From a virus (lineage: Duplodnaviria; Caudoviricetes), in IMG/VR virus record IMGVR_UViG_2687453341_000003, positions 1 to 64,000 of that record: a DNA stretch of 64,000 nt, one strand, 5' to 3'. Both the position numbers and the translations under genes were made by a program. This document shows, one piece after another, positions 21,531 through 40,716 of this stretch. Position 1 is the first letter of the stretch. Each line of letters begins with the position of its first letter. The notes under the pieces were generated by a model. It was not told the origin of the DNA. It did no database searches and was given only the letters and a program-made list of their open reading frames with translations.

Positions 21531-23801
21531 CTACTGGTTCCGCCGGCGCTTCTGCATCTCAGAAAAGCTCATCCGCTCCTTACGGATCTCGGCCGTGCCT
21601 TCGATGCCTGGAAGAATCACGCCTTGCATTGACGCCGCAACCGCAGAACCAACCAAACAGTCAAACCAGTGGTTGTCGGGCTGCTCCGGTCGCTGCTTCC
21701 ATTCGTCGACGCTCCGGCCGCGGGCCTCTGTCTTGACGAAGTACTCCGAGGTTAGATGCTCGGCGAGCATGCGATGGGTCTCGGCGTTGGTGCCAAAGAG
21801 CGAAAGGCAACCGCGATCGCCCATCGCGACTTGCAGGCGAGCGTTGATAAACGACTTCCACCAGTTCGTATCGTAGACCACGTGGCGGATGGCCCGCTTA
21901 CCGGCGACGTTGGGGATACGCCAGTTGAGCCCTACGCGATCACCTGGCCGGCGACGATATTCGCTAAACGGCAAACTCGATGCGCCCACGAAGCGACCGT
22001 GGCTGGGGATGATCACAGCGGCGTGTTTTGACTGCCGGCAGAACTGGTAGACCACATCCGTCGACTGGCCCCAGTTAGCATCGATCAAACAGCGACCGAT
22101 GCGCATCGCTGCACCGTCATCTCGCTGCCATTCCCGATCGAGTAGTTTTGAAGTTAGCGATTCGAGGCCGGCGTAGATCGATCCTTCGAGTCCGCTTCCA
22201 GTCGCTTCGGAGCTCAGTGTCTGGCGAGCCTCGCGCAGCGTAAAGTAGGGACGCTGCTGGTCGGGGTAGCAACCATAGTCGATTACATAACCCGTGTAAT
22301 CGTCCTCCCAAGCGGTGACCACATAGAACAGGAGCTTTTGCTGGACGTCAATGAAGGCCGTGAGATGGTTTGCACCGATCGATACCAAACCACGATCCAT
22401 GCGGTTGATCTTTCTCGCGACTTCTTCTGGTTTGAGCATTCCGTCAACCACCGTTTCCGCTGGCAGAGGTTGGTTTTGATATTCGGCGAAGAACGCAGCT
22501 TCGTCTTGTAGCTTGAGATTCATCGCGTGTTGGATTGCAGAGAGTTCGTCGTAGTTGAATCGCTCCTGCCAAGCGATAACGGCACCCTCGTCCATCGCGG
22601 CTTGATTCTGACGATAGAACTCGGTGGCCGCTTCACCACCATCACCGCCACGCATCCCTTCGGCGCGGATCTCGGCGTAACGTTCCCATAGCGTATCGTT
22701 CTTGGGGAACGCATAGACCATCTTTGTCCGCTCGCCATTCCATTCGGGATGCCGATTGCGATCGAGGATATTGTCGGCCATATCACCCGGGCGAATCACG
22801 GTGCAGGGCATGATGCCCGATATTTTCTTGCCCGGCCCGGCCAAGCCAAGGACTGCGCCGGCGAGGATGCTTTCGCGATTCGCGCATTGCGAGAGCGAAC
22901 GAGCGCTCTCATCCGTTTGCGGGTCATCGAGTACCACAAGACTCGGACGTACTGTTCTGCCATCTGGACGCTTGAACTTCATACCGCGGATGCGACCCGT
23001 AAGGCCGGCGACCTTGATGATCGCTCCGCTAGCGCTGCTACCCTCGATTGTTGGTAAGACGACTTCTTTGGCGGTCCATCCGATCTGCGTGCGCTTGCCT
23101 TTGTAAAGTTGACCATTGGCTCGATTGGAAATCCCATCGAGGGCTTGGATCGGGAAGCAGACCTCGGGGAAGTCGGCTAAGAGCAGCTCGTTGCTGTCGA
23201 GTTCGGTTTTGATTGAGTCGAGCATGTCACACGCATGACCTTCATCGCTGCCGATCAAACATACGAAGTTACGATGCCCGTAAAGCACCGCCCATATGCA
23301 AGCGACTTCAGCAATCGAACTCTTGCCGCTACCACGCGCCATCGCGAGTGCAAACAAACCGCCATGCACAACCGCTTGCTCGATCTTCTCGATGACCTTG
23401 ATGTGGTCCGGCGACCAGGCGAGATGGAACGTTAGCGGAAAGTATGTTTCACAAAAGTATCGGAAGTCTCGCGACGCCCGATCTTTGCGATCTGGGTTAT
23501 CGACCTCTGGTAGTTCACCAATGTCTCGACCTGCAAGTGCGAGCGCTGCATTGCGTGCGCGAGCTCGCTCCTTCATCGCATCGTAGGGATCGACACCGTT
23601 TGTCGTACGAGGTGTATGTCGTACGACATGCATCCATGCGCAATAGCGAAGCAAATCGACGGTCTTATTGTCGCCGATGCGTGCGCCGGCGCGTTGACGA
23701 TGGCGATACAGTTGACGCTCGCTGATCACCTCGCCTAGCGGCGTCGAGTTCAGCAGTCGGCATAGCTCGCTTGGTTTTAGCTTCCTCGGATCACTCGCCA
23801 C
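21531..23801 (-). CDS. Terminase large subunit (ATPase plus gpA-type nuclease)
   Basis: Walker A ARGSGKS, Walker B VVLDD, nuclease motifs FIDVQ and DNHWFDC; GTG start. Confidence 0.92.
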   Translation of the reverse strand: MASDPRKLKPSELCRLLNSTPLGEVISERQLYRHRQRAGARIGDNKTVDLLRYCAWMHVVRHTPRTTNGVDPYDAMKERARARNAALALAGRDIGELPEVDNPDRKDRASRDFRYFCETYFPLTFHLAWSPDHIKVIEKIEQAVVHGGLFALAMARGSGKSSIAEVACIWAVLYGHRNFVCLIGSDEGHACDMLDSIKTELDSNELLLADFPEVCFPIQALDGISNRANGQLYKGKRTQIGWTAKEVVLPTIEGSSASGAIIKVAGLTGRIRGMKFKRPDGRTVRPSLVVLDDPQTDESARSLSQCANRESILAGAVLGLAGPGKKISGIMPCTVIRPGDMADNILDRNRHPEWNGERTKMVYAFPKNDTLWERYAEIRAEGMRGGDGGEAATEFYRQNQAAMDEGAVIAWQERFNYDELSAIQHAMNLKLQDEAAFFAEYQNQPLPAETVVDGMLKPEEVARKINRMDRGLVSIGANHLTAFIDVQQKLLFYVVTAWEDDYTGYVIDYGCYPDQQRPYFTLREARQTLSSEATGSGLEGSIYAGLESLTSKLLDREWQRDDGAAMRIGRCLIDANWGQSTDVVYQFCRQSKHAAVIIPSHGRFVGASSLPFSEYRRRPGDRVGLNWRIPNVAGKRAIRHVVYDTNWWKSFINARLQVAMGDRGCLSLFGTNAETHRMLAEHLTSEYFVKTEARGRSVDEWKQRPEQPDNHWFDCLVGSAVAASMQGVILPGIEGTAEIRKERMSFSEMQKRRRNQ

Positions 23802-23997
23802 GTCCCATCTCCTTTGCTTGCCACGCGCTGTAGTGCACGAGGTTGATCGTGCCATCGGCGTTCACCGGCGCACCGCTTTGTATGTCAAGGCGGATCTTCT
23901 CTGGATCGATCCGCTCTCGGTATGCGGCCGCAAGTAGCTTCGCCGCTTGTTCCACCGGAATCCTCGTCGGATCGACCTGGCCCGTTCCTTCACTCAT
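23791..23997 (-). CDS. Small pre-terminase protein (possible DNA-binding/TerS-like)
   Basis: Overlaps the terminase start; homolog at 38549-38755; GGAGG RBS. Confidence 0.75.
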   Translation of the reverse strand: MSEGTGQVDPTRIPVEQAAKLLAAAYRERIDPEKIRLDIQSGAPVNADGTINLVHYSAWQAKEMGRGE

Positions 23998-24146
23998 CGC
24001 ATTCCTCCGTGACTTGGGATCTCGAAACGTGGGGCCACCGTTTGCGCACGGTCGCGTTTTGGCCGCATGTTCGCCTGGTTATGCGGAGCATGTTTGGACG
24101 CGATGGTGGCGTAATGCTGGGGCACCGGTGGCCTCTCAAAAAACAT
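23994..24146 (-). CDS. 50-aa bridging ORF, homologous to the C-terminus of the 1336-aa antisense ORF
   Basis: MFFERPPVPQHYAT...PSHGGMR. Its ATG overlaps the end of the 2096-aa ORF and its stop forms ATGA with the next gene. Confidence 0.45.
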   Translation of the reverse strand: MFFERPPVPQHYATIASKHAPHNQANMRPKRDRAQTVAPRFEIPSHGGMR

Positions 24147-24175
24147 GGAAATTACTAGGAAAACATGCAAGACTT

Positions 24176-24212
24176 CGCTTGAGGTTCCTCGAAACGCATG
24201 GCTCATGTGTGT
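24176..24212 (+). promoter_or_regulatory. Cassette leader repeat 1 (GGCTTG-N14-GCATGGCTCATGTGTGT)
   Basis: Fixed 20-nt offset between the two boxes; about 60 nt upstream of the amidoligase ATG. Confidence 0.8.
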
Positions 24213-24270
24213 CATCGCGACGCAGAAAACGCGACGCAAAACACACCTCGAACCACAAAGGAACAGAACG

Positions 24271-25128
24271 ATGAACGCAAACGAACTTTCTTGGGGAATT
24301 GAATTCGAATGTACGCTTCCTAGCACCGACAACACACCGATCGGCCCCTACCACAACGGATACCAAGTACCCTGGCTGCCAACCGGATGGAAAGCAGAAC
24401 GCGACGGGAGCATCCGACCCGAGAACGCCAGCCGCAAAGGTTGCGAGTTTGTAAGCCCAATACTCAAAGGGGTTGAAGGCGTACAGCAGATCGAGAACGC
24501 GATCGACCAAATCAACGCTCGCGGGGGCCGAGTGAATTCCAGCTGCGGACTTCACGTAACTATTAGCTGGCACGGAGACGCAGCCGCCTTGGCTCGATTG
24601 ATTTCCTTGGTCGGCAACCACGAACGAGCGATCTACGCTTCGACCGGAACCCGCAAACGCGAACAGATGATGTACGCCAAGCGAATCAAACAATACGGCA
24701 ACAAAGACAACGCCAAGAGCCGATGCGAATCGGATCGCTACCACCTGCTGAACTTGACCCACCTGACCCGCGGCAAAAACCGAATCGAATTCCGAGCCTT
24801 CGGCGGAACGCTCAACAAGACCAAGGTGGTCGGATACCTGATGATGGTTTTGGGTTTGGTTGAACTCGCCCTCAATACCAAACGATGCAGCGAATGGGAT
24901 TACATCAAGAAGGAAGGAACTAAGAGTTGCTGGGATCGCCCTGGTGCCGGCCTTGGCGAAACCGAACTCAACCGATTGTTCTACCGACTCGGATGGACCA
25001 AGGGTTGGTACAAGGGTGCCCTTCGCGACAAGGTCTACGGAGAGATCGCCGGCGAAACCAAACCGGAATGGAAAACGATCAAAACCAAACTCCTCGAGCT
25101 CGCCCGCAAATACGACCACGCGGCCTAA
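24271..25128 (+). CDS. Putative amidoligase (COOH-NH2 ligase type 2 family)
   Basis: WGIEFE, ERDGSI, CEFVSPIL, NSSCGLHV, RYHLLNL and IEFR motifs. Confidence 0.85.
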   Translation: MNANELSWGIEFECTLPSTDNTPIGPYHNGYQVPWLPTGWKAERDGSIRPENASRKGCEFVSPILKGVEGVQQIENAIDQINARGGRVNSSCGLHVTISWHGDAAALARLISLVGNHERAIYASTGTRKREQMMYAKRIKQYGNKDNAKSRCESDRYHLLNLTHLTRGKNRIEFRAFGGTLNKTKVVGYLMMVLGLVELALNTKRCSEWDYIKKEGTKSCWDRPGAGLGETELNRLFYRLGWTKGWYKGALRDKVYGEIAGETKPEWKTIKTKLLELARKYDHAA

Positions 25129-25142
25129 ATCGCAACCACATA

Positions 25143-25170
25143 GAACGCCGCGAACGGAATCGCGGCGTTC
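25143..25170 (+). terminator. GC-rich hairpin after the amidoligase gene
   Basis: GAACGCCGCG-loop-CGCGGCGTTC followed by TT. Confidence 0.55.
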
Positions 25171-25324
25171 TTCCGCTTGGTCGCAACACTTGCGCACCGT
25201 CGCGTTCTTCACACCGCATGCGACCAAGTACCCAAGATCCAAACGGACGCAACACACGCGAACGTTGTGCGACACGCGGCCGGCGAGAAAGCTGCGAAAA
25301 ACATTCTGAAAACATGCCGTAAAC

Positions 25325-25361
25325 GGCTTGAGGTTAATCAAACCGCATGGCTCATTTGTGG
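25325..25361 (+). promoter_or_regulatory. Cassette leader repeat 2
   Basis: GGCTTGAGGTTAATCAAACCGCATGGCTCATTTGTGG. Confidence 0.8.
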
Positions 25362-25407
25362 CATCACGTAAACGATTCCATTCCCTTTCCCAAACGGAGA
25401 AACACAG

Positions 25408-25701
25408 ATGAACGACACGAATCAAACGAGCGCCGAACAAGCGATCCAGGACCAACTGCGACGGCTCAAATGGATGATCCCCGATGCTATGCGCCGCATG
25501 GACGAGGCGGCTCAATGCATGCTTCGTCGCGCTCAAGGTGCGGTCAAAGACACCGAGGCATTGCTGGCCGACCAACCATGCAGCATGTCCTGGGTCGATT
25601 TCGCCGAGGGCGACCTCCGCGCTGCACGCGAGGCCAAAGCGGAACTTGCAAAACTTCTCGAGCAACAAAGAATGCTCGAGTTCTTCTTGAGGAAAGACTA
25701 G
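25408..25701 (+). CDS. Small helical hypothetical protein (cassette 1 only)
   Basis: GGAGA RBS; follows a leader repeat. Confidence 0.75.
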   Translation: MNDTNQTSAEQAIQDQLRRLKWMIPDAMRRMDEAAQCMLRRAQGAVKDTEALLADQPCSMSWVDFAEGDLRAAREAKAELAKLLEQQRMLEFFLRKD

Positions 25702-25906
25702 GCCGCTGCAGAGGCAAAGACCGAACACGGAGGTTCGGTCGACGAATCGTTGGCAATATTGGGCCAACGGTTCGTCAATGTGGGCCTGTTTCGTGTATGT
25801 AACTAATAGTGGCCAACGGTCTGCAGCAATGCGAACGGCGGCATCGTGTGCGAATTGTTCGCAAAGGCAGAAACATTCAGATTTCTGCCGAGATTCTCGC
25901 AGGCTT

Positions 25907-25943
25907 GGCTTGAGCTTTCGCCAACCGCATGGCTCATGTGTGT
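25907..25943 (+). promoter_or_regulatory. Cassette leader repeat 3
   Basis: GGCTTGAGCTTTCGCCAACCGCATGGCTCATGTGTGT. Confidence 0.8.
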
Positions 25944-25989
25944 CATCGCGTAAACGATTCAAACCTTTTTCCAAAACGGAGACACAAAC

Positions 25990-26247
25990 ATGACCAACGC
26001 AAACACCCAACACGCAGCGACCGACGCAACCCTTCGCCAGATCTTCAAGGCGATGGATGCCCACCAAGCCCAAGAGATCCGCGAAGCCTACTACAAGGCG
26101 ATCGAGGGTTTGATGACCTTGGCAGAAACCCTTGAGATCGCCGACGCACAACAAACACCCTGCGCCGGCCCGCTTCTCACCGAACACTTCAACGCGGTCC
26201 AAGCCCTGGACGCGATGAAGAACAGTCGCCTTGGAAAGATCCTCTAA
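25990..26247 (+). CDS. Small hypothetical protein (homolog at 40171-40428)
   Basis: GGAGA RBS; conserved second copy. Confidence 0.85.
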   Translation: MTNANTQHAATDATLRQIFKAMDAHQAQEIREAYYKAIEGLMTLAETLEIADAQQTPCAGPLLTEHFNAVQALDAMKNSRLGKIL

Positions 26248-26452
26248 GCCACAGACCAGCGGAATGCCACGGACGCCGCGAATGGAAGCGCGGCGTTCTT
26301 CCGCTTGGTCGCGACACACGCCCACTGCCGCGTGGTGTATCCCTTCTTCGACTAAGTACCCAACAATCAAAACATCGCAACACGGGCCAACGTCGGGGCC
26401 CGTAAGGCCTCCCCTGAAACATGGAAGAACACGGGAAAAAACTGCTGAAATC

Positions 26453-26489
26453 GGCTTGCTACCGGTTAAACCGCATGGCTCATGTGTGT
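26453..26489 (+). promoter_or_regulatory. Cassette leader repeat 4
   Basis: GGCTTGCTACCGGTTAAACCGCATGGCTCATGTGTGT. Confidence 0.8.
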
Positions 26490-26538
26490 CATCGCCCAGC
26501 GACCAACTGCTTTCACCACGCAATAGGAAAACAAACCG

Positions 26539-26814
26539 ATGTCCCGAACCAATGCCAGAACCGTTGCTATCAGAACCGCCTTCAAACAAATGCCTCGCGC
26601 CACCGCGATGGACCTCTGTGAGGACTATCGCGAAGTGGTCACAAGGTTGAAACGAATGACCGACAACTTGGCCGGCGCATTCGTGGTCGCGAGTGGAGAT
26701 TCGGCCCGTGCCCTGGAAGCAGAACTCCGCATGTTCGAAGAGGCCATAGACGTCCTTGCCGGCAGCATGCTGCCCGAAGTAATCGAAGAATATCTGGCTT
26801 CCAAGGAATGCTGA
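26539..26814 (+). CDS. Small hypothetical protein (cassette 1 only)
   Basis: AGGA RBS; follows a leader repeat. Confidence 0.75.
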   Translation: MSRTNARTVAIRTAFKQMPRATAMDLCEDYREVVTRLKRMTDNLAGAFVVASGDSARALEAELRMFEEAIDVLAGSMLPEVIEEYLASKEC

Positions 26815-26842
26815 GAAAACCTGCTGAAAACATTGCAAGGAC

Positions 26843-26879
26843 GGCTTGAGGTTAATCGAACCGCATGGCTCATGTGTGT
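26843..26879 (+). promoter_or_regulatory. Cassette leader repeat 5
   Basis: GGCTTGAGGTTAATCGAACCGCATGGCTCATGTGTGT. Confidence 0.8.
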
Positions 26880-26922
26880 TATCGCATAACCAATTTTCAT
26901 TCACCCAAACGGAGAACCAAAC

Positions 26923-27195
26923 ATGAACCTCGACACCCTGATCGAAATCCTCAGCGACTACCGCGAAGAGTTCGGAGGCGACGCCGAAGTGCGACTGATG
27001 ACCCAGCAGAACTGGCCCTTCGAGAACCGGATCTGCGGCGTTACCAGCGGACGCGACATAAACGACGCGTCCGACGATGAGGATGAAGACGACGACGCCC
27101 AAGACGTTGCCGACGACTACACGGTCTACATCGTCGAAGGCGGGCAGATCTGCTACGGCAGCAAGCGGGCTTGGGAAACGTGTCGCGATAGTTGA
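26923..27195 (+). CDS. Small acidic hypothetical protein (homolog at 40459-40716)
   Basis: EVRLMTQQNWPFE motif and Asp-rich loop; GGAGA RBS. Confidence 0.85.
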   Translation: MNLDTLIEILSDYREEFGGDAEVRLMTQQNWPFENRICGVTSGRDINDASDDEDEDDDAQDVADDYTVYIVEGGQICYGSKRAWETCRDS

Positions 27196-27257
27196 CCGCG
27201 ACACATCGATGCGCCAAGGAGAAGATTCTGGAAAACCTTCAGAATCTTTTCTTCTTC

Positions 27258-27294
27258 GGCTTGCTGTCGGTTGAGCCGCATGGCTCATGTGTGT
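27258..27294 (+). promoter_or_regulatory. Cassette leader repeat 6
   Basis: GGCTTGCTGTCGGTTGAGCCGCATGGCTCATGTGTGT. Confidence 0.8.
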
Positions 27295-27339
27295 CAACGC
27301 ACTTGCGAGTTCACATCTACAAACCATAGGAGTAACACA

Positions 27340-27549
27340 ATGGCTGGTCACACACCACAACAGTACGAATCGTACAACGACAACTGGGCCGAGGTTCAAA
27401 ACCAACTGGCCTCTATCAAGGAACGGATTGACCAGTTCCCAAATCCACATTATGAGAACTTCAGTTTCTACGAGCACCAAAGCTTCACCCTGCGAGAGGT
27501 GGCACGAGCGCTCGAGGGCTTGCGCGAGTATCTCGGCATCGCCGACTAG
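27340..27549 (+). CDS. 69-aa hypothetical protein (cassette 1 only)
   Basis: AGGAG RBS precedes MAGHTPQQY. Confidence 0.75.
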   Translation: MAGHTPQQYESYNDNWAEVQNQLASIKERIDQFPNPHYENFSFYEHQSFTLREVARALEGLREYLGIAD

Positions 27550-27754
27550 TAGACCCAGCGTCAAATCAGAACCGCGGCGAATGCATGTGCCGCGTTGACT
27601 GGCTAACACAACGCGACACATCAAACGTGTCGCGTTCTTTCTTCTGCCTGCGCCCAATGATGGAACAAGAATACGAACGCGACACAAACGAACGTGGGCA
27701 AAATTGGGCGATGGGGAGAAACATGGAAAAAGACTCGGAAAAGCTGCTGGAATT

Positions 27755-27791
27755 GGCTTGATGCTGTTCAAACCGCATGGCTCATGTGTGT
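27755..27791 (+). promoter_or_regulatory. Cassette leader repeat 7
   Basis: GGCTTGATGCTGTTCAAACCGCATGGCTCATGTGTGT. Confidence 0.8.
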
Positions 27792-27837
27792 GCATACCAA
27801 ACGCGGTTTCAAACCAACCCAACACCGGAGAGACACG

Positions 27838-28086
27838 ATGCCAACCATGACCAACCGACCACGCCTGACCTCGGCCCAGTTCCTCGGAGCGCACCGGCGA
27901 GCGCTGGAAACAATCAGCGACCTGTACGCAGTGGTCGAAGAGATGCCGATCCTCGCCGCTTCCGACCCATCGACCATGAAACAGTTCTTCGACGAACTGG
28001 CTGATGTGCAGGCCACCGCAGCGAAACTCGCCCAACATTTCCGAACGCAGGTATGCACCGAAGAAAAGAATTCGAATTCCTTTTGA
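27838..28086 (+). CDS. 82-aa hypothetical protein (cassette 1 only)
   Basis: GGAGA RBS precedes MPTMTNRP. Confidence 0.7.
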   Translation: MPTMTNRPRLTSAQFLGAHRRALETISDLYAVVEEMPILAASDPSTMKQFFDELADVQATAAKLAQHFRTQVCTEEKNSNSF

Positions 28087-28090
28087 ATCC

Positions 28091-28127
28091 GGCTTGATGC
28101 GGTTCAAACCGCATGGCTCATGTGTGT
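28091..28127 (+). promoter_or_regulatory. Cassette leader repeat 8
   Basis: GGCTTGATGCGGTTCAAACCGCATGGCTCATGTGTGT. Confidence 0.8.
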
Positions 28128-28170
28128 TAACGCGAAAACGATTCACCAACCAAAAAACGGAGACCAGCAG

Positions 28171-28485
28171 ATGACCCAACACGACCTCGACCTGACGATC
28201 ACCAAGATCAGCAATCGCAACCGCGGTGCTGGCGGGTCTTGGGTGCAAGGCAAGATCAACGACGAATACCGATTCGATGCTTTGGTCTTCGCCGAACACG
28301 CAGAACACGAATCGTACGAATTGAACCAGAGCAAGATTTCGAAGCTTTGGGTTCAACGCCTGGCAGACCGCAAAGTGATGTTCAACTTCGATCGCGGGTT
28401 GGATGTGCCAGCGGTCAATACAGAGGTGCAGGTGATAGTCGACTTTCTCTGCGAGGGATTGTCGGACTTGGTCTTTGGTCAATAA
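28171..28485 (+). CDS. Conserved small phage protein (DUF7678-like; homolog at 41209-41523)
   Basis: WVQG.I...RF.ALVF, SKISKLW and FNFDRG.D motifs. Confidence 0.8.
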   Translation: MTQHDLDLTITKISNRNRGAGGSWVQGKINDEYRFDALVFAEHAEHESYELNQSKISKLWVQRLADRKVMFNFDRGLDVPAVNTEVQVIVDFLCEGLSDLVFGQ

Positions 28486-28554
28486 GCCGAAACGCAGCAC
28501 GGACGCGCGTAGTCGATCGGTGGTTCGATCGGCCTGACGATGGCAGCCAACCAC
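28486..28554 (+). ncRNA. Type II hammerhead ribozyme with loop-I pseudoknot
   Basis: GCC-GAAA, stem III, GUA cleavage triplet (28509-28511), stem I GUCGAUCG/CGAUCGGC, core CUGACGA, then U-GGC. Loop GUGGUU is complementary to downstream AACCAC. Confidence 0.88.
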
Positions 28555-28578
28555 GAACACAGATTTGGAGATACGAAG

Positions 28579-29148
28579 ATGAAGAAGGCAGAAGTAAAGA
28601 TCGGTGGCAAGTACTATGCGAACGTTTCGGGCAATCGCTGCGAGATTCGGATCGATGCCGAGAAGCCTCGGGGCGGTTGGGACGCAACCAACCTCGCGAC
28701 CGGCAAAAAGATCTTGATCAAGAGCGCCCAACGCCTGCAGGGCGAAGTGGGTGCGAAACGCGGACGCGCGAAGGTCACCACCGAAGGTAACGTAACGGTG
28801 GTTGAGAACGAACCAGCCACCGTCGAAACGATCGGAGGCGAAACGTCCACAGCGGTTGCGGTTCTCAAGAAGCCACGCAAGGCAAAGGCTGCATCCACCG
28901 AGACCGCCGACGCCGGCGAGAAGCGATTGAGCTGCGTCGCTGCGGCCTTGAAGGTTCTCAGCGAATCGAGCGAACCGATGAACGCTCAAGAGTTGATCAC
29001 CGCGATGGAAGCCAAGGGCTATTGGAGCAGCCCCGGTGGCAAGACTCCCCACGCGACCTTGTACAGCGCGATCCTTCGTGACTTGGCCAAGGGCGACGAT
29101 AGCAAGTTCGTGAAGACCGAACGCGGACGCTTCACCGTTCGAGACTAG
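28579..29148 (+). CDS. Protein with a C-terminal HARE-HTH-type winged helix
   Basis: LS...AA.KVL....EPM...ELI.......W....GKTPHATLYSAILR...RG.F motif. Confidence 0.8.
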   Translation: MKKAEVKIGGKYYANVSGNRCEIRIDAEKPRGGWDATNLATGKKILIKSAQRLQGEVGAKRGRAKVTTEGNVTVVENEPATVETIGGETSTAVAVLKKPRKAKAASTETADAGEKRLSCVAAALKVLSESSEPMNAQELITAMEAKGYWSSPGGKTPHATLYSAILRDLAKGDDSKFVKTERGRFTVRD

Positions 29149-29160
29149 GAGACCCAGCCG

Positions 29161-29394
29161 GTGAAACACTTTTACGATTTGCGAACGGTGGATGACTTGG
29201 CCGAAGGCGAGATCGCAGTGCCAGAGCCAGGCATCACCTACGACCTGCGAACGATTAACAATCGCAAGCTCGACGTCGGCAGCGTGGTGGACGTGATCCG
29301 CCAAGGTCCCACGCTGTTCGCCCGAACCGCTAGCGGAGATTCGATTGCCGTCTCCGGCCACGGCGCTGCCATCTTGGTACCGCACGACTTGTAG
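29161..29394 (+). CDS. 77-aa hypothetical protein (distant homolog of 40723-40962)
   Basis: AGGAG RBS with GTG start; shares DL..G....PE....Y and AR...G...AVSG. Confidence 0.75.
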   Translation: MKHFYDLRTVDDLAEGEIAVPEPGITYDLRTINNRKLDVGSVVDVIRQGPTLFARTASGDSIAVSGHGAAILVPHDL

Positions 29395-29571
29395 ACACGC
29401 CCGAAGCACGGAACGCTTCCCACCAATCGCCCCACGTTTACACCGTGTGGGCGTTTTCTCGTTGATGCGAACATAAGCCCAACCAGCAACACAACGCGAC
29501 ACGTCGCGGAACTGCGGTTCGCCGGCGCAGCCACATGTTTGGAAGAAATTCACAAAACATGCTCGCATGTT

Positions 29572-29608
29572 GGCTTGATGTTTTTGCGATTCGCTGGCTG
29601 ACTGTTGA
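29572..29608 (+). promoter_or_regulatory. Degenerate cassette leader repeat
   Basis: GGCTTGATG followed by a diverged GCTGGCTGACTG box. Confidence 0.45.
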
Positions 29609-29646
29609 GGATCGTCTTTCGTTTCTCCAACAACCAGGAACCAACT

Positions 29647-29862
29647 ATGGCCAAACCAGCCCTTGAGCCGGCAGCTCCCTACGAGAACCTGCACCTCGTA
29701 GCACGCGACTACCTCGATCGACTGCGTCAATCGCTCGATGCTATGCAACAACCAGATGACCCAAATCTGCGATGGCGGAAAGTTCACACGATGGCACAGG
29801 TCAACGCACGCCTGGCTCAAGCCGGCGAACTGCTCGACAAACTCAACCCAACCACCAAATGA
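29647..29862 (+). CDS. 71-aa hypothetical protein
   Basis: AGGA RBS precedes MAKPALEP. Confidence 0.7.
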   Translation: MAKPALEPAAPYENLHLVARDYLDRLRQSLDAMQQPDDPNLRWRKVHTMAQVNARLAQAGELLDKLNPTTK

Positions 29863-29874
29863 AACAAGGAACCA

Positions 29875-30105
29875 ATGACCATGCACACACGACTGAATAA
29901 AGGCGATCGCATCCGCTTGGTGTCGATGCCGCAAGATCCAGACCCGATCCCCGTTGGATCGCTCGGGACCGTCATTGATGTTCACGAGCATCACGATTGG
30001 ATGCAGGTCGATGTCGATTGGGACAACGGCCGCTCCCTCATGCTGACGATGCCCGACGATTGTGTCGCCATCGTCGAACCCAACCACCACGAACCATCGA
30101 AGTAA
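29875..30105 (+). CDS. DUF4314-family protein
   Basis: GDRIRLVSM..DPDPIP.G..GTV and V.WDNGRSL.L motifs. Confidence 0.8.
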   Translation: MTMHTRLNKGDRIRLVSMPQDPDPIPVGSLGTVIDVHEHHDWMQVDVDWDNGRSLMLTMPDDCVAIVEPNHHEPSK

Positions 30106-30117
30106 GGAAGCCAACCT

Positions 30118-30435
30118 ATGTCCACAAGAGCAACGATTGCCTGCAAGCAAGAAGACGGTCGCTACGCAGCGATCTACCTTCACTTCGATGGCTACCAAGA
30201 CCACGCCGGCAGAGTCCTCAAAGAACATTACACATCGATCGAGTCGGCACGAACGCTGGTCGCAGGTGGCGATATTCGATCGCTCGCTAACGACGGAACG
30301 CCCGAACGATTCACCGACGGTAATCGCACGGTTGTCATGCCGACGCGCGCGGCTCTCCACGAGTTCGCGAGGAACTGCGGCACCGAGTATGTTTACGTTT
30401 TCGAGGACGACGCTTGGCATTGTCATAGGCTTTGA
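30118..30435 (+). CDS. Conserved phage protein with an MSTR...Y.H.DGY motif
   Basis: MSTRATI, IYLHFDGY and EYVYVF..W motifs; AAGGA RBS. Confidence 0.8.
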   Translation: MSTRATIACKQEDGRYAAIYLHFDGYQDHAGRVLKEHYTSIESARTLVAGGDIRSLANDGTPERFTDGNRTVVMPTRAALHEFARNCGTEYVYVFEDDAWHCHRL

Positions 30436-30441
30436 TGGGCT

Positions 30442-30864
30442 TTACTGATTCGATGAGTTTTGTTTTGCACGAAGTTTCCGATTGCGTTTCGCGATGACGG
30501 CGAGGTCCGATAGACAGCGCTTGCACACCCCCATCACACCGTTGCGTCCCTTGTATTCGTAGAACTCCGTGTCGACGGGCCGATACCATTGGCAGCGCCG
30601 ACAGCGTTTCAACCAGCGGCTGCCAACTCGGATGCAACCGCTGTGAATCCGCTTGTGCTCCAAGCGAGTCACCAGCATGAGGTTCTCAAGTCGGTTATCG
30701 AGCTTGTCACCGTTGCGATGGTGTAGCTCCATGCCTTCAGGGATAGGCCCATGGTGCGTCTCCCAGACGATTACATGCTCAAACCTTTGCTTCCGATCCT
30801 TGCACGTGATCCGTCGATAGCCGAACGGCGTGATTGAACCTCTGGCCGGTGACCGTTGCGTCAT
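30442..30864 (-). CDS. HNH endonuclease with a C-terminal Zn-binding CxxC pair
   Basis: EHVIVWE.HHGPIP, HHRNGDKLDNRLENL and EH...H motifs. Confidence 0.9.
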   Translation of the reverse strand: MTQRSPARGSITPFGYRRITCKDRKQRFEHVIVWETHHGPIPEGMELHHRNGDKLDNRLENLMLVTRLEHKRIHSGCIRVGSRWLKRCRRCQWYRPVDTEFYEYKGRNGVMGVCKRCLSDLAVIAKRNRKLRAKQNSSNQ

Positions 30865-31833
30865 CGCATGTTCTCCTCTCGCGCCTTCATGGGGATCGGA
30901 GATTCGCCCGTTCGTTCCAAGACCGCAGGGATACCTGTGAAACGCTGGAAGCGATCAACGATGACATCACAATACAGCGTGTCGAGTTCCATCAAGAACG
31001 CGTTGCGACCGCACTGCTCAGCGCCGATCAGCGTTGAGCCACTGCCACCGAACAGGTCGAGGACGTTCTCGCCTTGAACCGACGAATACTGCATCGCGCG
31101 GACAGCGAGTTCAGCCGGCTTGCCCGTTAAATGTTCAAGCTGTTGCGGAGGGATCTTCTTGACATGCCAAAGGTCCGTGATGTTCTTCGGTCCATAGAAC
31201 TTATGGCCGGCACCTTCTTTCCAGCCATAGAACGCCCATTCATGCGCGCCCATGAAATCTTTTCGCGTCAAAACTGGATGCTGCTTGTCCCAGATGATTG
31301 ATTGCGAGAAGTACAGCCCATGCTTCTTCAGTACCGGTGGATAGTTGCCGCAGTTGGCGTAGCCACCCCAGATGTAGAAGCAGCGACCTGGCAGTAAGAC
31401 TCGGGCAATGTTTCCAAACCAATCATCAAGCAGCTTGTCGAACGCCTCGTCGCTGACGAAGTCATTTGCAAGCGGTCGATCCTTTGGACGAAGCTTCTTG
31501 TGAGTCGCTGCATGTTTTGGTTTGCCCGTTTCGTGATCGACACCAAACGAAGCGGCGTTGCCTTGTCCTTGCTTCAGCCGGCCCGATGCCCCATCGTTCG
31601 AGAACGAAGACAAACCCGCAGCGATCGCGTTATTCGATCGCGGTTCGACCTTTACGTTGTAGGGCGGATCTGTGTTGCACAAGTGGATCGCAGCGCCGGC
31701 CAAGAGCCGATCTAAGTCCGCCGGCGACGACGAGTCACCACAGAGTAGCCGATGGTTTCCGAGGATCCAAAGATCGCCTGGTTGGGTAACCGCTTCGTCT
31801 GGCGGCTCCGGCACATCGTCTGGATCGGTGAGC
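30861..31833 (-). pseudogene. 5'-truncated DNA methyltransferase (N6A/N4C, beta class) that lacks the ParB domain
   Basis: DPPY and DLFGGSGST are intact. Alignment to 42775-44166 ends at LTDPD; an unrelated N-terminus continues in frame to 31970. Confidence 0.8.
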
Positions 31834-32274
31834 TTCCAGGCAACCCACTGATTCCGATCGCGAATGCAACTTGGACAATTCTGGTCGATAGCTTCAAGAG
31901 GCGGTTGGGGTGCGGAACCTCCCCGGACCGACCCTGATAAGGAACCTTCTCGGAGAAGTCGATTTCGCAACTGCTTGAAAAACGAGGGCTTACGGAGTTC
32001 GAGACCGAATCGCTCGGTCGTAAAAGGTGTGCCGCGTTACGGAAAATCTGCTTAACAGTCAGGACTTTCGCTGCGCGCGTTTTTAGTCATTTTAGCTTTC
32101 CGCGACCTGCACATAAGTTCTTGTTTGAACAGTCGTTAACCGCTTTCGGGTTACATCGGTGCCCCGCATCGGTCTCGAACGCATGCGACATACTACTTAG
32201 CAATCACTGCGAACCGGCTGCACCGCCATGAAGCAGTTGTTACATGCAGCCGTCGAACTATCCTAGACCCACAT

Positions 32275-36291: not shown

Positions 36292-38559
36292 TCAAACCCG
36301 TCGTCGCCCCTGCATTTCCTTGAAACTCAGTCGATTTCGCTTCTCGGGAACATCTCGATCGGTACCAAAGAGCACAACGCCTTGCATGGATGCCGCAACG
36401 GCAGTGCCTACCAAACAGTCGAACCAGTGGTTGTCGGGCTGCTCGGGTCGCTGCTTCCATTCGTCAACTGATCGGCCACGCCCTTCCGTTTTGATGAAAT
36501 ATTCGGACGTGAGATGCTCGGAGAGCATACGGTGGGTTTCGGCGTTGCTACCAAAAAGCGATAAGCAGCCGCGATCGCCCATGGAGACTCGCATTCGAGC
36601 GTTGATGAATGATTTCCACCAGTTGGTGTCATAGAGCACGTGTCGGATGGCGCGCTTGCCATTTACGTTGGGCACGCGCCAGTTGAGACCGACCCGGTCT
36701 CCGGGCCGACGTCGATACTCGCTGAACGGTTGACTTGAAGCACCTACGAATCTCCCGTGGCTCGGCATGATCACGGCGGCATGTTTGGATTGCCGGCAGA
36801 ACTGATAGACCACATCAGTCGATTGGCCCCAGTTGGCGTCGATCAAGCAGCGACCGATTCGCATTGCAGCCCCATCGTCTCGTTGCCACTCGCGATCGAG
36901 TAGATTGGATGTCAGCGATTCAAGGCCGGCGTAGATCGATCCCTCGAGCCCAGTTCCCATTGCCTCGGAACTCAACGTTTGCCGAGCTTCCCGTAATGTG
37001 AAGTACGGACGCTGCTGATCGGGATAGCAACCGTAGTCAATGATATAGCCTGTGAAATCATCCTCCCAGGCAGCGACTACATAGAAGAGCAATTTCTGCT
37101 GGACGTCGATGAATGCGGTGAGGTGGTTTGCTCCGATGGAAACCAAGCCGCGATCCAAGCGGTTGATCTTGCTTGCAACCTCTGCGGGTTTGAGCATCCC
37201 ATCGCTAACCGTCTCGGCTGGCAGCGGTTGGTTCTGGTATTCAGCGAAGAACGCAGCTTCATCCTGAAGCTTGAGGTTCATAGCATGCTGGATTGCCGAA
37301 AGTTCATCGTAGTTAAATCGCTCCTGCCAAGCGACAACAGCGCCGTCATCCATAGCCGCTTGGTTCTGACGATAGAATTCGGTGGCTGCTTCACCACCAT
37401 CACCACCTCGCATCCCTTCCGCGCGGATCTCGGCATAGCGTTCCCAAAGTGTTTCGTTCTTTGGGAAGGAGTAAACCATCTTGGTTCGTTCGCCATTCCA
37501 TTCGGGATGTCGATTGCGATCGAGGATATTGTCGGCCATATCACCAGGGCGAATCACCGTGCAGGGCATGATGCCTGAGATCTTCTTCCCCGGGCCAGCC
37601 AAACCGAGCACTGCACCGGCAAGAATGCTTTCGCGATTTGCACATTGCGAAAGCGAACGCGCACTCTCATCGGTTTGCGGGTCATCGAGCACCACGAGGC
37701 TTGGACGGACCGTTCGACCATCGGGGCGCTTGAACTTCATTCCACGGATACGACCGGTTAGGCCAGCGACCTTGATAATCGCTCCGCTGGCACTGCTACC
37801 TTCGATGGTTGGCAGCACAACCTCTTTGGCGGTCCATCCGATCTGCGTGCGTTTGCCTTTATAGAGCTGACCATTCGCGCGATTTGAGATTCCATCGAGG
37901 GCTTGGATGGGAAAACAAACCTCGGGGAAGTCGGCTAAAAGCAGCTCGTTGCTGTCGAGTTCGGTTTTGATCGAATCGAGCATGTCGCAGGCGTGGCCTT
38001 CGTCGCTACCGATCAGACAGACGAAGTTCCGATGTCCGTAGAGCACTGCCCAGATGCAAGCGACTTCTGCGATCGACGATTTTCCACTGCCACGTGCCAT
38101 CGCCAAGGCAAACAATCCCCCATGGACAACAGCTTGCTCAATTTTGTTGATGACCTTGATATGGTCCGGAGACCATGCGAGATGAAACGTGAGCGGAAAG
38201 TAGGTCTCGCAAAAGTATCGGAAGTCTCGCGATGCGCGATCTTTCCGATCGGGATTGTCTACCACCGGAAGTTCACCGATATCTCGGCCGGCTAGCGCGA
38301 GCGCTGCGTTGCGTGCTCGAGCTCGCTCCTTCATCGCTTCGTACGAATCGACCCCTGAGTTTTGTTTGGGAGTATGGCGTACGACGTGCATCCAGGCGCA
38401 GTAGCGAAGGAGGTCGACCGTCTTGTTGTCACCGATACGGGCGCCGGCGCGTTGCCGATGACGATACAACTGCCGCTCGCTGATCACCTCGCCTAGCGGC
38501 GTTGAGTTGAGCAGCCGGCATAGCTCACTTGGCTTTAGTTTTCGAGGATCACTCGCCAC
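36292..38559 (-). CDS. Terminase large subunit (copy 2)
   Basis: Same motifs as 21531-23801, with many synonymous differences. Confidence 0.92.
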   Translation of the reverse strand: MASDPRKLKPSELCRLLNSTPLGEVISERQLYRHRQRAGARIGDNKTVDLLRYCAWMHVVRHTPKQNSGVDSYEAMKERARARNAALALAGRDIGELPVVDNPDRKDRASRDFRYFCETYFPLTFHLAWSPDHIKVINKIEQAVVHGGLFALAMARGSGKSSIAEVACIWAVLYGHRNFVCLIGSDEGHACDMLDSIKTELDSNELLLADFPEVCFPIQALDGISNRANGQLYKGKRTQIGWTAKEVVLPTIEGSSASGAIIKVAGLTGRIRGMKFKRPDGRTVRPSLVVLDDPQTDESARSLSQCANRESILAGAVLGLAGPGKKISGIMPCTVIRPGDMADNILDRNRHPEWNGERTKMVYSFPKNETLWERYAEIRAEGMRGGDGGEAATEFYRQNQAAMDDGAVVAWQERFNYDELSAIQHAMNLKLQDEAAFFAEYQNQPLPAETVSDGMLKPAEVASKINRLDRGLVSIGANHLTAFIDVQQKLLFYVVAAWEDDFTGYIIDYGCYPDQQRPYFTLREARQTLSSEAMGTGLEGSIYAGLESLTSNLLDREWQRDDGAAMRIGRCLIDANWGQSTDVVYQFCRQSKHAAVIMPSHGRFVGASSQPFSEYRRRPGDRVGLNWRVPNVNGKRAIRHVLYDTNWWKSFINARMRVSMGDRGCLSLFGSNAETHRMLSEHLTSEYFIKTEGRGRSVDEWKQRPEQPDNHWFDCLVGTAVAASMQGVVLFGTDRDVPEKRNRLSFKEMQGRRRV

Positions 38560-38755
38560 GGCCCATCTCCTTTGCTTGCCAAGCGCTATAGTTCACGAGG
38601 TTGATCGTGCCATCGGCGTTCGCGGGCGCACCTTCATGGAGATCGCTTCGGATCTTCTCGGCATCGATCCGTTCTCGGTAGGCAGCGGACAGAAGTTTCG
38701 CGGCTTGTTCGATCGAGAGTCTCGTCGGATCGACCGGCTGTTTGTCTTCACTCAT
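38549..38755 (-). CDS. Small pre-terminase protein (copy 2)
   Basis: Homolog of 23791-23997. Confidence 0.75.
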   Translation of the reverse strand: MSEDKQPVDPTRLSIEQAAKLLSAAYRERIDAEKIRSDLHEGAPANADGTINLVNYSAWQAKEMGRGE

Positions 38756-38934
38756 CGCATTCCTCCGTGACTTGGTAGTTCAAAACGTGGGGCCACTGTT
38801 TGCGCCGTGTCGCGTTTCCCCATCCACTTCGCCTGGTTATGCGAAGCATGTTTGAACGCGACGGTGGCGTAATGTTGGGGCACCGGTGGCTTCTCGAAGA
38901 ACATGCGAAATTGCTGGAAAAACATGATGCAATT

Positions 38935-38972
38935 CGCTGGATGATTCCTCTCCCGCAAGGCTTCATGTGTGT
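38935..38972 (+). promoter_or_regulatory. Variant cassette leader repeat with a 1-nt insertion
   Basis: CGCTGG-N14-GCAAGGCTTCATGTGTGT. Confidence 0.65.
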
Positions 38973-39030
38973 TGTCGCGACGCGAAGAACGCGACGAAAC
39001 ACAAACCTTGCACCCCAGAGGAACATCACC

Positions 39031-39888
39031 ATGAACGCAAACGAAATTTTCTTTGGTCTGGAATTTGAGACGACGCTTCCGAACAGTGACACCACACCAA
39101 TCGGCCCCTACCACAACGGATACCAAGTCCCTTGGTTGCCAAACGGATGGAAAGCGGAACGCGATGGTAGCATCCGCCCTGAGAGCCCATGCCGCAAAGG
39201 ATGCGAGTTCGTAAGCCCCAAGCTGAAAGGTTACGATGGCCTCAAGGAAATCGAGGAAGCGATCGACCAAATCAACGCTCGTGGGGGACGAGTCAATTCG
39301 AGCTGTGGTCTCCATCTTTCGATAGATTGGCGTGGCGACGCAGCGGCACTCGCACGACTGATCTCCCTGGTTGGCAACCACGAGAAAGCGATTTTCGCGA
39401 GTACTGGGACTCGCCGCCGCGAACAAACGATCTACACCAAGCAGATCAAGCAATACGGCGACAAAGACGCTGCGAAGAATCGATGTGAAGCGGATCGCTA
39501 CCACCTGCTGAACCTTACCCACCTCGCTGCCGGTAGAAACCGTATCGAATTTCGGGCTTTCGCAGGAACTCTCAACAAGACCAAGGTGGTCGGATACCTG
39601 ATGATGGTTTTGGGATTGGTAGAGCTGGCCCTGAACACCAAACGCTGCAGCGATTGGGACTACATCAAGAAGGAAGGAACCAAAAGCTGCTGGGATAGAC
39701 CAGGCGCCGGCCTTGGGGAAACGGAGATCAACCGATTGTTCTACCGCCTCGGTTGGACCAAGGGTTGGTACAAGGGCGCTCTTCGCGACAAGGTTTACGG
39801 GGAGATCACAGGGGAAACCAAACCGGATTGGAAGGCGATCAAGACCAAGCTGATCGAGCTTGCCCGCAAGTACGACCGCGCGGCCTAG
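39031..39888 (+). CDS. Putative amidoligase (copy 2)
   Basis: FGLEFE, CEFVSP, NSSCGLH and IEFR motifs. Confidence 0.85.
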   Translation: MNANEIFFGLEFETTLPNSDTTPIGPYHNGYQVPWLPNGWKAERDGSIRPESPCRKGCEFVSPKLKGYDGLKEIEEAIDQINARGGRVNSSCGLHLSIDWRGDAAALARLISLVGNHEKAIFASTGTRRREQTIYTKQIKQYGDKDAAKNRCEADRYHLLNLTHLAAGRNRIEFRAFAGTLNKTKVVGYLMMVLGLVELALNTKRCSDWDYIKKEGTKSCWDRPGAGLGETEINRLFYRLGWTKGWYKGALRDKVYGEITGETKPDWKAIKTKLIELARKYDRAA

Positions 39889-39902
39889 GACTAATCCAGA
39901 CG

Positions 39903-39931
39903 AAACGCCGGGAAAACAATCCCGGCGTTTT
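39903..39931 (+). terminator. Hairpin terminator, potentially bidirectional
   Basis: AAACGCCGGGA-loop-TCCCGGCGTTTT. Confidence 0.6.
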
Positions 39932-39954
39932 GACGTTTTCTGGCCCACCATTTC

Positions 39955-39984
39955 GCCAGTATGGCGTCGGCTTGAGTAGTTCAA
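39955..39984 (+). promoter_or_regulatory. Bipartite motif GCCAGTA-N11-TGAGTAGTTCAA
   Basis: Same spacing as the three other copies. Confidence 0.65.
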
Positions 39985-40087
39985 AGATAGTGGGCAATCG
40001 TCTTCGGCGTCGTCGCATATCGCGTTTTGTGCGACATGTCGCAGATCAGAGAAACCTGTGAGATTTGCCATTAATCCTCGCATGTTC

Positions 40088-40124
40088 GGCTTGAGGTTAT
40101 CTAAACCGCATGGCTCCATGGTGT
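40088..40124 (+). promoter_or_regulatory. Cassette leader repeat (cassette 2)
   Basis: GGCTTGAGGTTATCTAAACCGCATGGCTCCATGGTGT. Confidence 0.75.
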
Positions 40125-40170
40125 CATCGCGTAAGCGATTCGAAACCGAGTTCCCAACGGAGACACAAAC

Positions 40171-40428
40171 ATGACCAACGCAAGCAACCCACACGCAGCG
40201 ACCGACGCGACCCTTCGCCAAATCTTCAAGGCGATGGACGCCCACCAAGCCCAAGAGATCCGCGAAGCCTACTACAAGGCGATCGAGGGACTGATGACCT
40301 TGGCTGAAACCCTCGAAGTCGCCGACGCACAACAAACCCCCAGCGCCGGCCCGCTTCTCACCGAACACTTCCACGCGGTCCAAGCGTTGGACGCCATGAA
40401 GAACAGCCGCCTCGGCAAGATCCTCTAA
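40171..40428 (+). CDS. Small hypothetical protein (homolog of 25990-26247)
   Basis: Near-identical protein. Confidence 0.85.
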   Translation: MTNASNPHAATDATLRQIFKAMDAHQAQEIREAYYKAIEGLMTLAETLEVADAQQTPSAGPLLTEHFHAVQALDAMKNSRLGKIL

Positions 40429-40458
40429 ACCCAAGAACATAACGAAGGAGAAATCAAC

Positions 40459-40716
40459 ATGAAGCTCGACACCTTGATCGAAATCCTGAACGACTACCGC
40501 GAAGAGTTCGGAGGCGACGCGGAAGTGCGATTGATGACCCAGCAAAATTGGCCCTTTGAGAACCGTATCTGCGGTGTAACGAGCGGGCGCGACATGAACG
40601 AATCGGATGAGGACGATGACCAAGATGTCGCTGACGACCAAACGGTCTACATCGTCGAAGGGGGGCAAATCTGCTACGGCAGCAAGAGGGCTTGGGAAAA
40701 CTACAAGGATAGCTGA
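40459..40716 (+). CDS. Small acidic protein (homolog of 26923-27195)
   Basis: AAGGAG RBS; near-identical protein. Confidence 0.85.
   Translation: MKLDTLIEILNDYREEFGGDAEVRLMTQQNWPFENRICGVTSGRDMNESDEDDDQDVADDQTVYIVEGGQICYGSKRAWENYKDS

Follow-up and report, generated by a model that had tools for sequence, protein, structure and literature searches.

A stop-free antisense frame spanning a frame-locked, inverted gene cassette in a lambda-like planctomycete prophage

The DNA considered here, referred to as the window, is a stretch of 64,000 nucleotides (nt), positions 1 to 64,000 of the IMG/VR virus record IMGVR_UViG_2687453341_000003 (Duplodnaviria; Caudoviricetes). It comes from a lambda-like prophage in a Pirellula-type planctomycete, a double-stranded DNA (dsDNA) element with a gpA-type terminase and a lambda-type portal as recognized by Pfam. 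Read along the minus strand, its module has the order methylase and HNH endonuclease, a cassette of plus-strand genes lying inverted, a small gene, the large terminase gene (TerL) and the portal gene. Minus-strand genes thus stand on both sides of a plus-strand insert, as in a noncontiguous operon, and this synteny is kept in relatives. HNH proteins work together with terminases. Opposite the cassette, codon for codon, runs a long minus-strand open reading frame (ORF), here called the bridge.

A stop-free frame opposite the cassette

The bridge over the first cassette is open for 6303 nt from stop to stop, and no other open frame in the window, whatever its kind, is as long. All 13 plus-strand genes beneath it start at coordinates that leave a remainder of 1 on division by 3, and the 14 spacers inside it, 2004 nt in sum, are without exception divisible by 3 (their lengths include 6, 12, 84, 93, 108, 135, 144 and 252 nt). 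Reverse codons coincide with forward codons in 13/13 genes here and in 7/7 genes of a second cassette in the window. The plus-strand triplets that read as antisense stops, TTA, CTA and TCA, are missing from the register frame, both within genes (0, against 52 and 47 in the other two frames) and within spacers (0, the ORF's own stop aside, against 28 and 17). Over the whole bridge region there are 0 antisense stops in register, as compared with 82 and 64 in the other antisense frames.

As a control, the 19 long minus-strand genes of the window carry TTA, CTA or TCA in 255 of 10142 codons (25.1 per 1000), the longest run free of them being 275 codons; long ORFs of the host genome use them at about 16 per 1000, an approximate figure. 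Arithmetic from the counts gives a probability of ~3e-16 for the absence of such codons from about 1434 coding codons, given a rate of 25.1 per 1000, and of (2/3)^45, or ~1e-8, for zero in register in the spacers. The avoidance therefore goes beyond general codon usage. Nor is the bridge a shadow ORF, since it spans 13 genes together with all of their spacers, in a genome of 54% GC. The frame lock and the stop-free mirror frame are neither chance nor general codon bias. An earlier interpretation, made from the letters alone without database searches (the sequence-only reading), had pointed to the shared frame of the 13 starts, to a mirror frame without a stop for 6.3 kb that includes about 2 kb of spacers, and to a lock beyond chance and codon bias; the frame-specific counts and control genes bear this out, and the comparison with other genes that it called for stands at 0 versus 25.1 per 1000. 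Its statement that antisense runs in other genes stay under 200 amino acids (aa) was slightly too low, as runs of 275, 235 and 211 codons occur.

The second cassette repeats the pattern. All 7 of its genes and all 8 of its spacers are in register, and antisense stops number 0 there against 39 and 40 in the other frames. Between the two cassettes, identity is 84% for the amidoligase proteins and 81% for the HARE-HTH proteins.

The plus-strand genes themselves are real, because matches to Pfam lie above the curated cut-offs and because variability relative to relatives concentrates at codon position 3. The third position is the most variable in 12/12 sense genes that could be aligned with close relatives (gene 6, at 27340-27549, is uncovered), and pooled variability is 406 at position 3 as opposed to 81 and 123 elsewhere. 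A GGAG/AGGA-type Shine-Dalgarno (SD) sequence lies upstream of each of the 13 starts. PHROG families are absent for 9 of the 10 small proteins searched.

Most of the units carry a leader repeat with an 18-nt core, present in 8 copies in cassette 1 and 1 copy in cassette 2, or 9 in the window against 0.05 expected. The core contains a TCA, which in a single register would read as an antisense stop, and arithmetic on the starts places 0 copies in that register. Several spacers are paralogous units of 279-291 nt, and the plus strand is T-poor, with an AT skew of about +0.2. A scan for sigma-70 promoters gave 0 consensus matches, and terminator-like sites number 17 against 10.1 +/- 3.7 expected; the leader repeats are candidate promoters only, and the label "early" for the cassette is an assumption.

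The ribozyme that had been placed inside the bridge proves to be a type II hammerhead above the Rfam gathering score, and its antisense forms part of the open frame. A hammerhead sits in the same place in both cassettes, between the DUF7678 and HARE-HTH genes, the copy in cassette 2 lying at 41523-41590 (50.8 bits). Perfect 12-bp stem hairpins, AGAACGCCGCGA ... TCGCGGCGTTCT, occur as paralogous copies at 25142-25171 and 26273-26299 on the plus strand, just past gene stops. They are candidate plus-strand terminators or processing sites, which a minus-strand ribosome would need to melt. An invertible segment was considered and rejected, there being no inverted repeats flanking the cassette and no recombinase nearby except an rve transposase.

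Table 1. Features of the two cassettes and their flanks. Variability is the number of variable alignment columns at codon positions 1/2/3.
Feature	Coordinates	Strand	Details
Bridge ORF 1	24136..30441	-	open 24139-30441, TGA 24136-24138, first ATG 30426, 2096 aa; codon-aligned with 13 plus-strand genes
HNH endonuclease	30442..30864	-	Pfam HNH_3, 1.9e-20; TAA, then bridge in same frame
N6/N4 DNA methylase, without ParB domain in this copy	30861..31970	-	Pfam N6_N4_Mtase, 1.6e-23
Relay ORF over bridge 3' end	23994..24335	-	113 aa from GTG, 50 aa from ATG 24146
68-aa gene before TerL	23791..23997	-	strong SD GGAGG; conserved in relatives
Large terminase (gpA type)	21531..23855	-	Pfam GpA_nuclease, 2.2e-23
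Cassette gene 1, amidoligase, 285 aa	24271..25128	+	Pfam Amidoligase_2, 1.7e-17; variability 23/13/82
Cassette gene 2, 97 aa orphan	25408..25701	+	SD; variability 26/26/61
Cassette gene 3, 85 aa orphan	25990..26247	+	SD; variability 4/2/12
Cassette gene 4, 91 aa orphan	26539..26814	+	SD; variability 15/8/34
Cassette gene 5, 90 aa orphan	26923..27195	+	SD; variability 4/6/17
Cassette gene 6, 69 aa orphan, putative	27340..27549	+	AGGAG SD; outside relatives' alignments
Cassette gene 7, 82 aa orphan	27838..28086	+	SD; variability 6/5/22
Cassette gene 8, DUF7678, 104 aa	28171..28485	+	Pfam, 2e-16; variability 3/1/20
Type II hammerhead ribozyme, spacer of genes 8 and 9	28485..28552	+	Rfam RF02276, 39.6 bits (gathering 37)
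Cassette gene 9, HARE-HTH protein, 189 aa	28579..29148	+	Pfam HARE-HTH, 1.1e-13; variability 10/7/63
Cassette gene 10, 77 aa orphan, GTG start	29161..29394	+	SD; variability 8/4/22
Cassette gene 11, 71 aa orphan	29647..29862	+	variability 9/1/14
Cassette gene 12, DUF4314, 76 aa	29875..30105	+	Pfam DUF4314, 5.7e-11; variability 8/4/23
Cassette gene 13, phrog_1987, 105 aa	30118..30435	+	PHROG, 3.6e-23; variability 7/4/35
Leader repeat core CCGCATGGCTCATGTGTG, 8 copies	24194, 25343, 25925, 26471, 26861, 27276, 27773, 28109	+	45-60 nt before gene starts
Bridge ORF 2	38752..42774	-	open 38755-42774; 1336 aa from GTG 42762
Cassette 2, seven genes	39031..42771	+	starts 39031, 40171, 40459, 40723, 41209, 41617, 42220, all leaving remainder 1 on division by 3; amidoligase, HARE-HTH and DUF4314 included
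ParB-domain DNA methylase, upstream of bridge 2	42775..44166	-	Pfam ParB_N + N6_N4_Mtase
Second large terminase (gpA type), downstream of bridge 2 and second small gene	36292..38559	-	Pfam GpA_nuclease, 2.2e-22

Conservation, target of selection and junctions

A search of genome contigs with the amidoligase returned 80 loci at 68-97% identity, often several per genome, and all but two of them (in Kuenenia and Chitinophaga metagenome-assembled genomes) are labelled Planctomycetota, mostly genera of the Pirellulaceae. The conserved synteny runs TerL(-), small gene(-), amidoligase(+) ... HARE-HTH(+), DUF4314(+), optional HNH(-), methylase(-). After exclusion of 25 loci for a missing flank, 55 were analysed: the share of the cassette spanned by a single antisense ORF is 90% or more in 16, 70% or more in 33 and below 30% in 9. 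For comparison, an equal length of late genes from the same locus was tiled on the antisense strand wherever space allowed, which was in 46 loci. The longest antisense ORF of the cassette exceeds this control in 44/46 loci, with medians of 3452 versus 758 nt, and antisense tiles per kb number 1.5 for the cassette versus 4.7 for the late genes; in the low-coverage subset the cassette ORF still exceeds the control in 15/17.

Among IMG/VR contigs, where 30 of 52 loci have both flanks, bridge coverage is at least 90% in 26/30 and at least 70% in 29/30, the exception being locus L124 at 27%. The 26 best-bridged viral loci comprise 17 distinct cassette lengths, from 4021 to 7718 nt, with bridges of up to 7542 nt. 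The bridge is thus conserved, though not universally, in 33/55 genome loci, 29/30 viral contigs and 4/4 copies in the host genome, and the diversity of architectures that keep the frame open argues for ongoing selection. The expectation of the sequence-only reading for homologous loci held in part: the open frame is kept despite differing gene content, with 9/55 loci fragmented.

The host genome, a single contig of 6,534,136 bp, carries four copies of the element as found by tblastn. A codon score that compares a sequence with its own reverse complement, six stop-related codons excluded, marks bridge 1 as antisense-like (-0.068) and does the same for 58 of the 1343 host ORFs that measure 1500 nt or more from stop to stop; the top four by length (6303, 4683, 4125 and 4020 nt) are the bridges of the four copies. 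The two copies outside the window lie in the opposite orientation, at G000 C1:5905500-5916000 and C1:5985500-5996500, and their bridges, of 4125 and 4683 nt, end exactly at the start of the small gene. The fifth-longest antisense-like ORF (G000 C1:1970298-1974074, 3777 nt) was set aside as unrelated; it is made of tandem repeats of about 315 nt with both strands open, and is probably a repeat-domain giant gene. At G000 C1:1946240-1947721 a methylase fragment (85% identical) abuts a C-terminal fragment of TerL (72%) with no cassette between them, a junction that looks like the deletion remnant of a fifth element.

What is conserved is the openness of the frame. Within the spacers, the part of the region in which nothing but the bridge could code, variable columns are distributed over bridge codon positions 1, 2 and 3 as 109/108/108, with about 520 columns for each position, and codon adaptation in the bridge frame is nil (score -0.047). 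Because spacer variability is flat and codon adaptation is lacking, the frame is open while its amino acid sequence is not conserved, and on this evidence selection keeps the frame open without acting on the protein sequence, as the earlier reading had proposed. The purifying selection on antisense amino acids that marks an antisense overlapping gene was not found. Selection for an open antisense frame is itself very well supported by the sequence comparisons.

The predicted product is of low complexity and odd composition (V 11.5%, C 4.1%, H 4.1%, M 0.5%), and carries a recurring "DTHEPCG" motif that is the antisense reading of a repeated DNA element. The proteins of bridges 1 and 2 match no Pfam family. 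A database search gave 11 homologs (P0002-P0012; 1155-2308 aa), all without domains and either "hypothetical" or unnamed. An exact look-up of the two bridge proteins in the protein collection matched neither.

Spacer insertions and deletions (indels) provide few events. In one relative (L004), changes of +8, +1, -1 and +1 within about 100 nt come to a net +9, which counts in favour of a translated bridge; two 1-nt gaps at block edges (25892, 27792) are uninformative.

The junctions between the bridges and the flanking genes are tight. Upstream of cassette 1 the HNH gene ends in TAA and the same frame stays open, with an ATG 15 nt on, as had been noted; upstream of cassette 2 the frame likewise continues open past the TAA of the ParB methylase, with a GTG 12 nt on. 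Downstream of cassette 2 the bridge TGA overlaps the ATG of the second 68-aa gene (ATGA). Downstream of cassette 1 the handover is made through the relay ORF, whose TGA overlaps the ATG of the 68-aa gene in the same way, so that the claimed passage through a 50-aa overlapping ORF to the pre-terminase gene stands. Relatives have an additional base at about 24147-24149, by which the bridge and the relay frame would become one. The 68-aa gene matched no Pfam or PHROG family.

Of the 35 loci where coverage reaches 70% or more, 16 have a bridge stop that overlaps the small gene's start codon, 12 of them as ATGA. In 5 + 3 further loci the end of the bridge lies 151 or 162 nt upstream, at which point the frame of the small gene itself is already open, and in seven loci no small-gene start codon was located, so that junction offsets there are unreliable. 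At the other end, the distance from the upstream stop to the bridge start ranges from -4 to +19 nt over 8 loci, ATGA-type overlaps among them. This stop-to-start geometry fits translation-coupled read-through.

Proposed translation of a crossing transcript

Because only the ribosome reads triplets, and because the absence of stops is frame-specific, includes the spacers and is conserved, translation of a minus-strand RNA is the best explanation of the frame. On balance we think it probable that the ORF is a translated bridge carrying the late operon across an inverted accessory cassette. The cassette would consist of accessory single-gene units, most with a leader repeat, inverted within the packaging end of the late operon, and the late minus-strand transcript would have to run antisense through it to reach the terminase genes. 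Ribosomes leaving the methylase or HNH gene would re-initiate a few nt downstream, make a meaningless polypeptide of 1300-2100 residues and terminate on or beside the start codon of the small gene. Such continuous translation may shield the long antisense RNA from Rho-dependent polarity, from hairpin termination, or from decay or pairing with the sense RNAs. Selection for the open frame would in turn impose one register on all genes, hold the spacers to multiples of 3, and ban TTA, CTA and TCA in register.

Several observations weigh against this interpretation. The bridge over cassette 1 stops 141 nt short of the small gene, so that the relay ORF is needed; neither bridge start codon in the window has a clear SD before it, and the small gene has a strong SD of its own (GGAGG) and hence no need for ribosome delivery. 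In the nine fragmented genome loci the longest ORF covers less than 30% of the cassette. Loci with cassettes of 6-8.8 kb, of which L041, L050, L067, L074 and L079 are examples, have a longest piece of 1.1-2.2 kb, with TerL apparently intact. In loci of the Novipirellula/Aporhodopirellula type a 3.4-kb ORF makes up about 75% of the cassette, and the 1 kb beside the methylase is in several pieces. Since fragmented loci include several with an apparently intact TerL, a continuous bridge is not essential in all lineages. The loci are moreover related, and some viral contigs are near-duplicates, so that the counts exceed the number of independent events.

Metatranscriptome contigs from 4 runs cover the cassette and its flanks alike; they are short and unstranded, come from relatives 90-99% alike, and may reflect DNA carry-over. 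As a weak aside, the spacer indels listed from them are net 0 or 3 (25739/25749; 26335, 26338, 26344; 26510 +TTT; 27217/27221), nine more indels being unlisted, with the exception of a +G at 24149, at the bridge's end.

The nature of the hazard is a separate matter. Rho is described as acting on nascent RNA that is not under translation (PMC5909445), and the host encodes a Rho with a frame of 471 aa. A second host ORF, of 587 aa, has a weaker match to Rho_RNA_bind (47 bits; G000 C1:1833785-1833997, L082). A further point on the debit side is that, relative to ordinary late mRNA, the minus-strand cassette RNA is neither richer in C nor poorer in G, and windows with C>G are about as frequent in the one as in the other. 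Nothing therefore points specifically to Rho; the shielding from Rho proposed in the sequence-only reading is plausible, and within the translated-bridge interpretation we rate the chance that Rho is the particular hazard at less than half.

The crossing transcript might instead serve regulation, in that ribosome-coupled antisense transcription would shut the cassette off late, or would force RNA polymerase past oncoming polymerases and past proteins bound to operators at the roughly nine leader repeats. The 8 leader-repeat units facing the late operon, the mutually exclusive opposed transcription units described for phage 80alpha (PMC11087260), and a minus-strand RNA that is not an unusually good Rho substrate all speak for this possibility, yet antisense silencing requires no open frame, and we regard such an origin of the constraint as unlikely while giving it some real weight. 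The constraint shows that translation matters, not why, and regulation and a translated bridge are not mutually exclusive. It is less likely again that the frame serves ribosome delivery only, with termination and reinitiation handing ribosomes to the small gene and TerL and with protection of the RNA irrelevant. ATGA or near overlaps in 16/35 well-bridged loci and tight starts after the upstream stop are what this would produce; a short upstream ORF would suffice for the purpose, however, yet 4-7.5 kb is kept open, and the small gene is already provided with its strong SD.

Two further explanations were considered. The 2096-codon ORF might be a true antisense overlapping gene over 13 genes, as the conservation of a long ORF in relatives and the calling of its homologs as proteins of 1155-2308 aa would suggest. 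The flat spacer variability, the absence of any Pfam family, the lack of a domain or functional name in all 11 homologs, the odd composition with its antisense-like codon score, and a length that shifts from 1.3 to 2.5 thousand residues with cassette content make a functional giant protein very improbable. Slightly more improbable still is a by-product, without any antisense selection, of composition, codon bias and duplicated leader-gene modules whose length is a multiple of 3. In-register antisense frames are generally the most open, and the T-poor plus strand and the paralogous spacer units tend the same way; against this, the other antisense frames hold 82 and 64 stops in the same DNA, spacers from 6 to 252 nt are multiples of 3 as well, other genes of the element carry the three triplets at 25 per 1000, and the open frame persists across at least 17 cassette architectures while matched late-gene controls have a median of 758 nt.

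A stronger statement can be framed, to which we would give even chances: in planctomycete lambda-like phages it may be a hard rule that backward inserts in the translationally coupled packaging operon must be "ambigrammatic", since late expression would depend absolutely on uninterrupted ribosome transit. Under such a rule all genes would share one register, and the lengths of spacers, promoters and ribozyme would be divisible by 3, with no stop on the opposite strand. Selection on this kilobase-scale ORF would then concern nothing but its capacity to be translated; the bridge would be the bacterial DNA-phage counterpart of the narnavirus ambigrams, and the rule would filter exchangeable accessory modules.

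Related systems, significance and neighbouring sequence

Narnaviruses are one close precedent. Their reverse ORF, of more than 3 kb, is described as codon-aligned (frame -0), kept open by avoidance of UUA, CUA and UCA, and conserved in relatives (PMC6884476, PMC7010960, PMC8155312); it is argued to be non-functional as a protein, ribosome loading being held to protect the RNA (PMC8155312). The bridge shares the codon-aligned reverse ORF, the avoidance of three codons and the argument against a protein. As presented in those passages, however, narnaviruses are eukaryotic RNA viruses of roughly 3 kb whose ORF mirrors a single gene (that for RdRp, or the "Robin" segment), whereas the bridge belongs to a bacterial dsDNA prophage, mirrors 7-13 genes with putative promoter spacers and a ribozyme, and is joined stop to start to operon genes. 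It is ambigram-like and lies outside that virus group.

Operons that cross opposite-strand genes are described in S. aureus and phage 80alpha (PMC11087260, PMC11034616, PMC7154746, PMC12288877). In these noncontiguous operons and excludons, as here, a same-strand unit is split by opposite-strand genes with their own promoter, and the long transcript is antisense to them. The cited passages treat the antisense as untranslated RNA, acting through interference or RNase III, and describe no conserved open frame or frame lock; the inserts considered here, unlike those, are of 4-7.7 kb with up to 13 genes. Translation-dependent late read-through has a precedent in P4 eta/kil, where translation of eta coupled to the upstream gene is reported to prevent termination, so that transcription from the late promoter reads through (PMC10111431, summarising Forti et al. 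1999). In that summary eta is an ordinary, modestly sized sense gene that yields a product, and not the mirror of a counter-oriented multi-gene cassette.

Long ORFs antisense within annotated genes are also on record in bacteria, among them pop (603 nt; PMC7103648) and P. aeruginosa examples of 957 and 1536 nt (PMC8850804; review, PMC7457138). As these accounts give them, they lie within single genes and do not exceed about 1.5 kb, and purifying selection on their proteins is argued for, in contrast to a bridge of 6.3 kb over 13 genes with no protein-level constraint. Hammerhead ribozymes are reported to flank prophage genes (PMC3088659). The type II hammerhead here likewise has a small prophage gene on either side and lies on the cassette's sense strand; it differs in that its antisense, too, is stop-free in one frame, the ribozyme being a passenger.

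Literature searches of open PMC and bioRxiv, within the terms used, found no paper that describes, for a DNA phage, an antisense frame kept free of stops and locked in register over a cassette of several genes. Within these searches the suggestion that the architecture was undescribed holds for such a cassette, and it needs amending with respect to its principles, which are known from narnaviruses, P4 eta and noncontiguous operons. Known principles are here combined in a new setting and at a new scale: a DNA prophage in which a single register is shared by as many as 13 genes, their leader repeats and a ribozyme.

If correct, the translated bridge would be a clear bacterial case of selection on the translatability of an RNA, with no product, over 4-7.5 kb; on the opposite strand its imprint would be visible as a constraint on 7-13 unrelated genes, their promoters and a ribozyme. 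The need for transcription-translation coupling in long phage operons would become directly testable, one synonymous change in a sense gene sufficing to create an antisense stop. Public gene calls of bridges as hypothetical proteins of 1155-2308 aa are likely to be a systematic mis-annotation, which can mask the small sense genes, themselves candidates for anti-defence or host-takeover functions. Counter-oriented, frame-locked cassettes free of TTA, CTA and TCA provide a search signature by which such inserts, and the operons that cross them, could be found in other phages.

As to the remainder of the window, no tRNAs were found in it, and the region 24000-31000 has no match in the phage collection by blastn at a distant setting. 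A transposase gene (rve_3 integrase core with HTH_32) lies on the plus strand at 32244-33443, between the truncated methylase of element 1 and the portal of element 2, a position that fits two related prophages joined at an insertion sequence.

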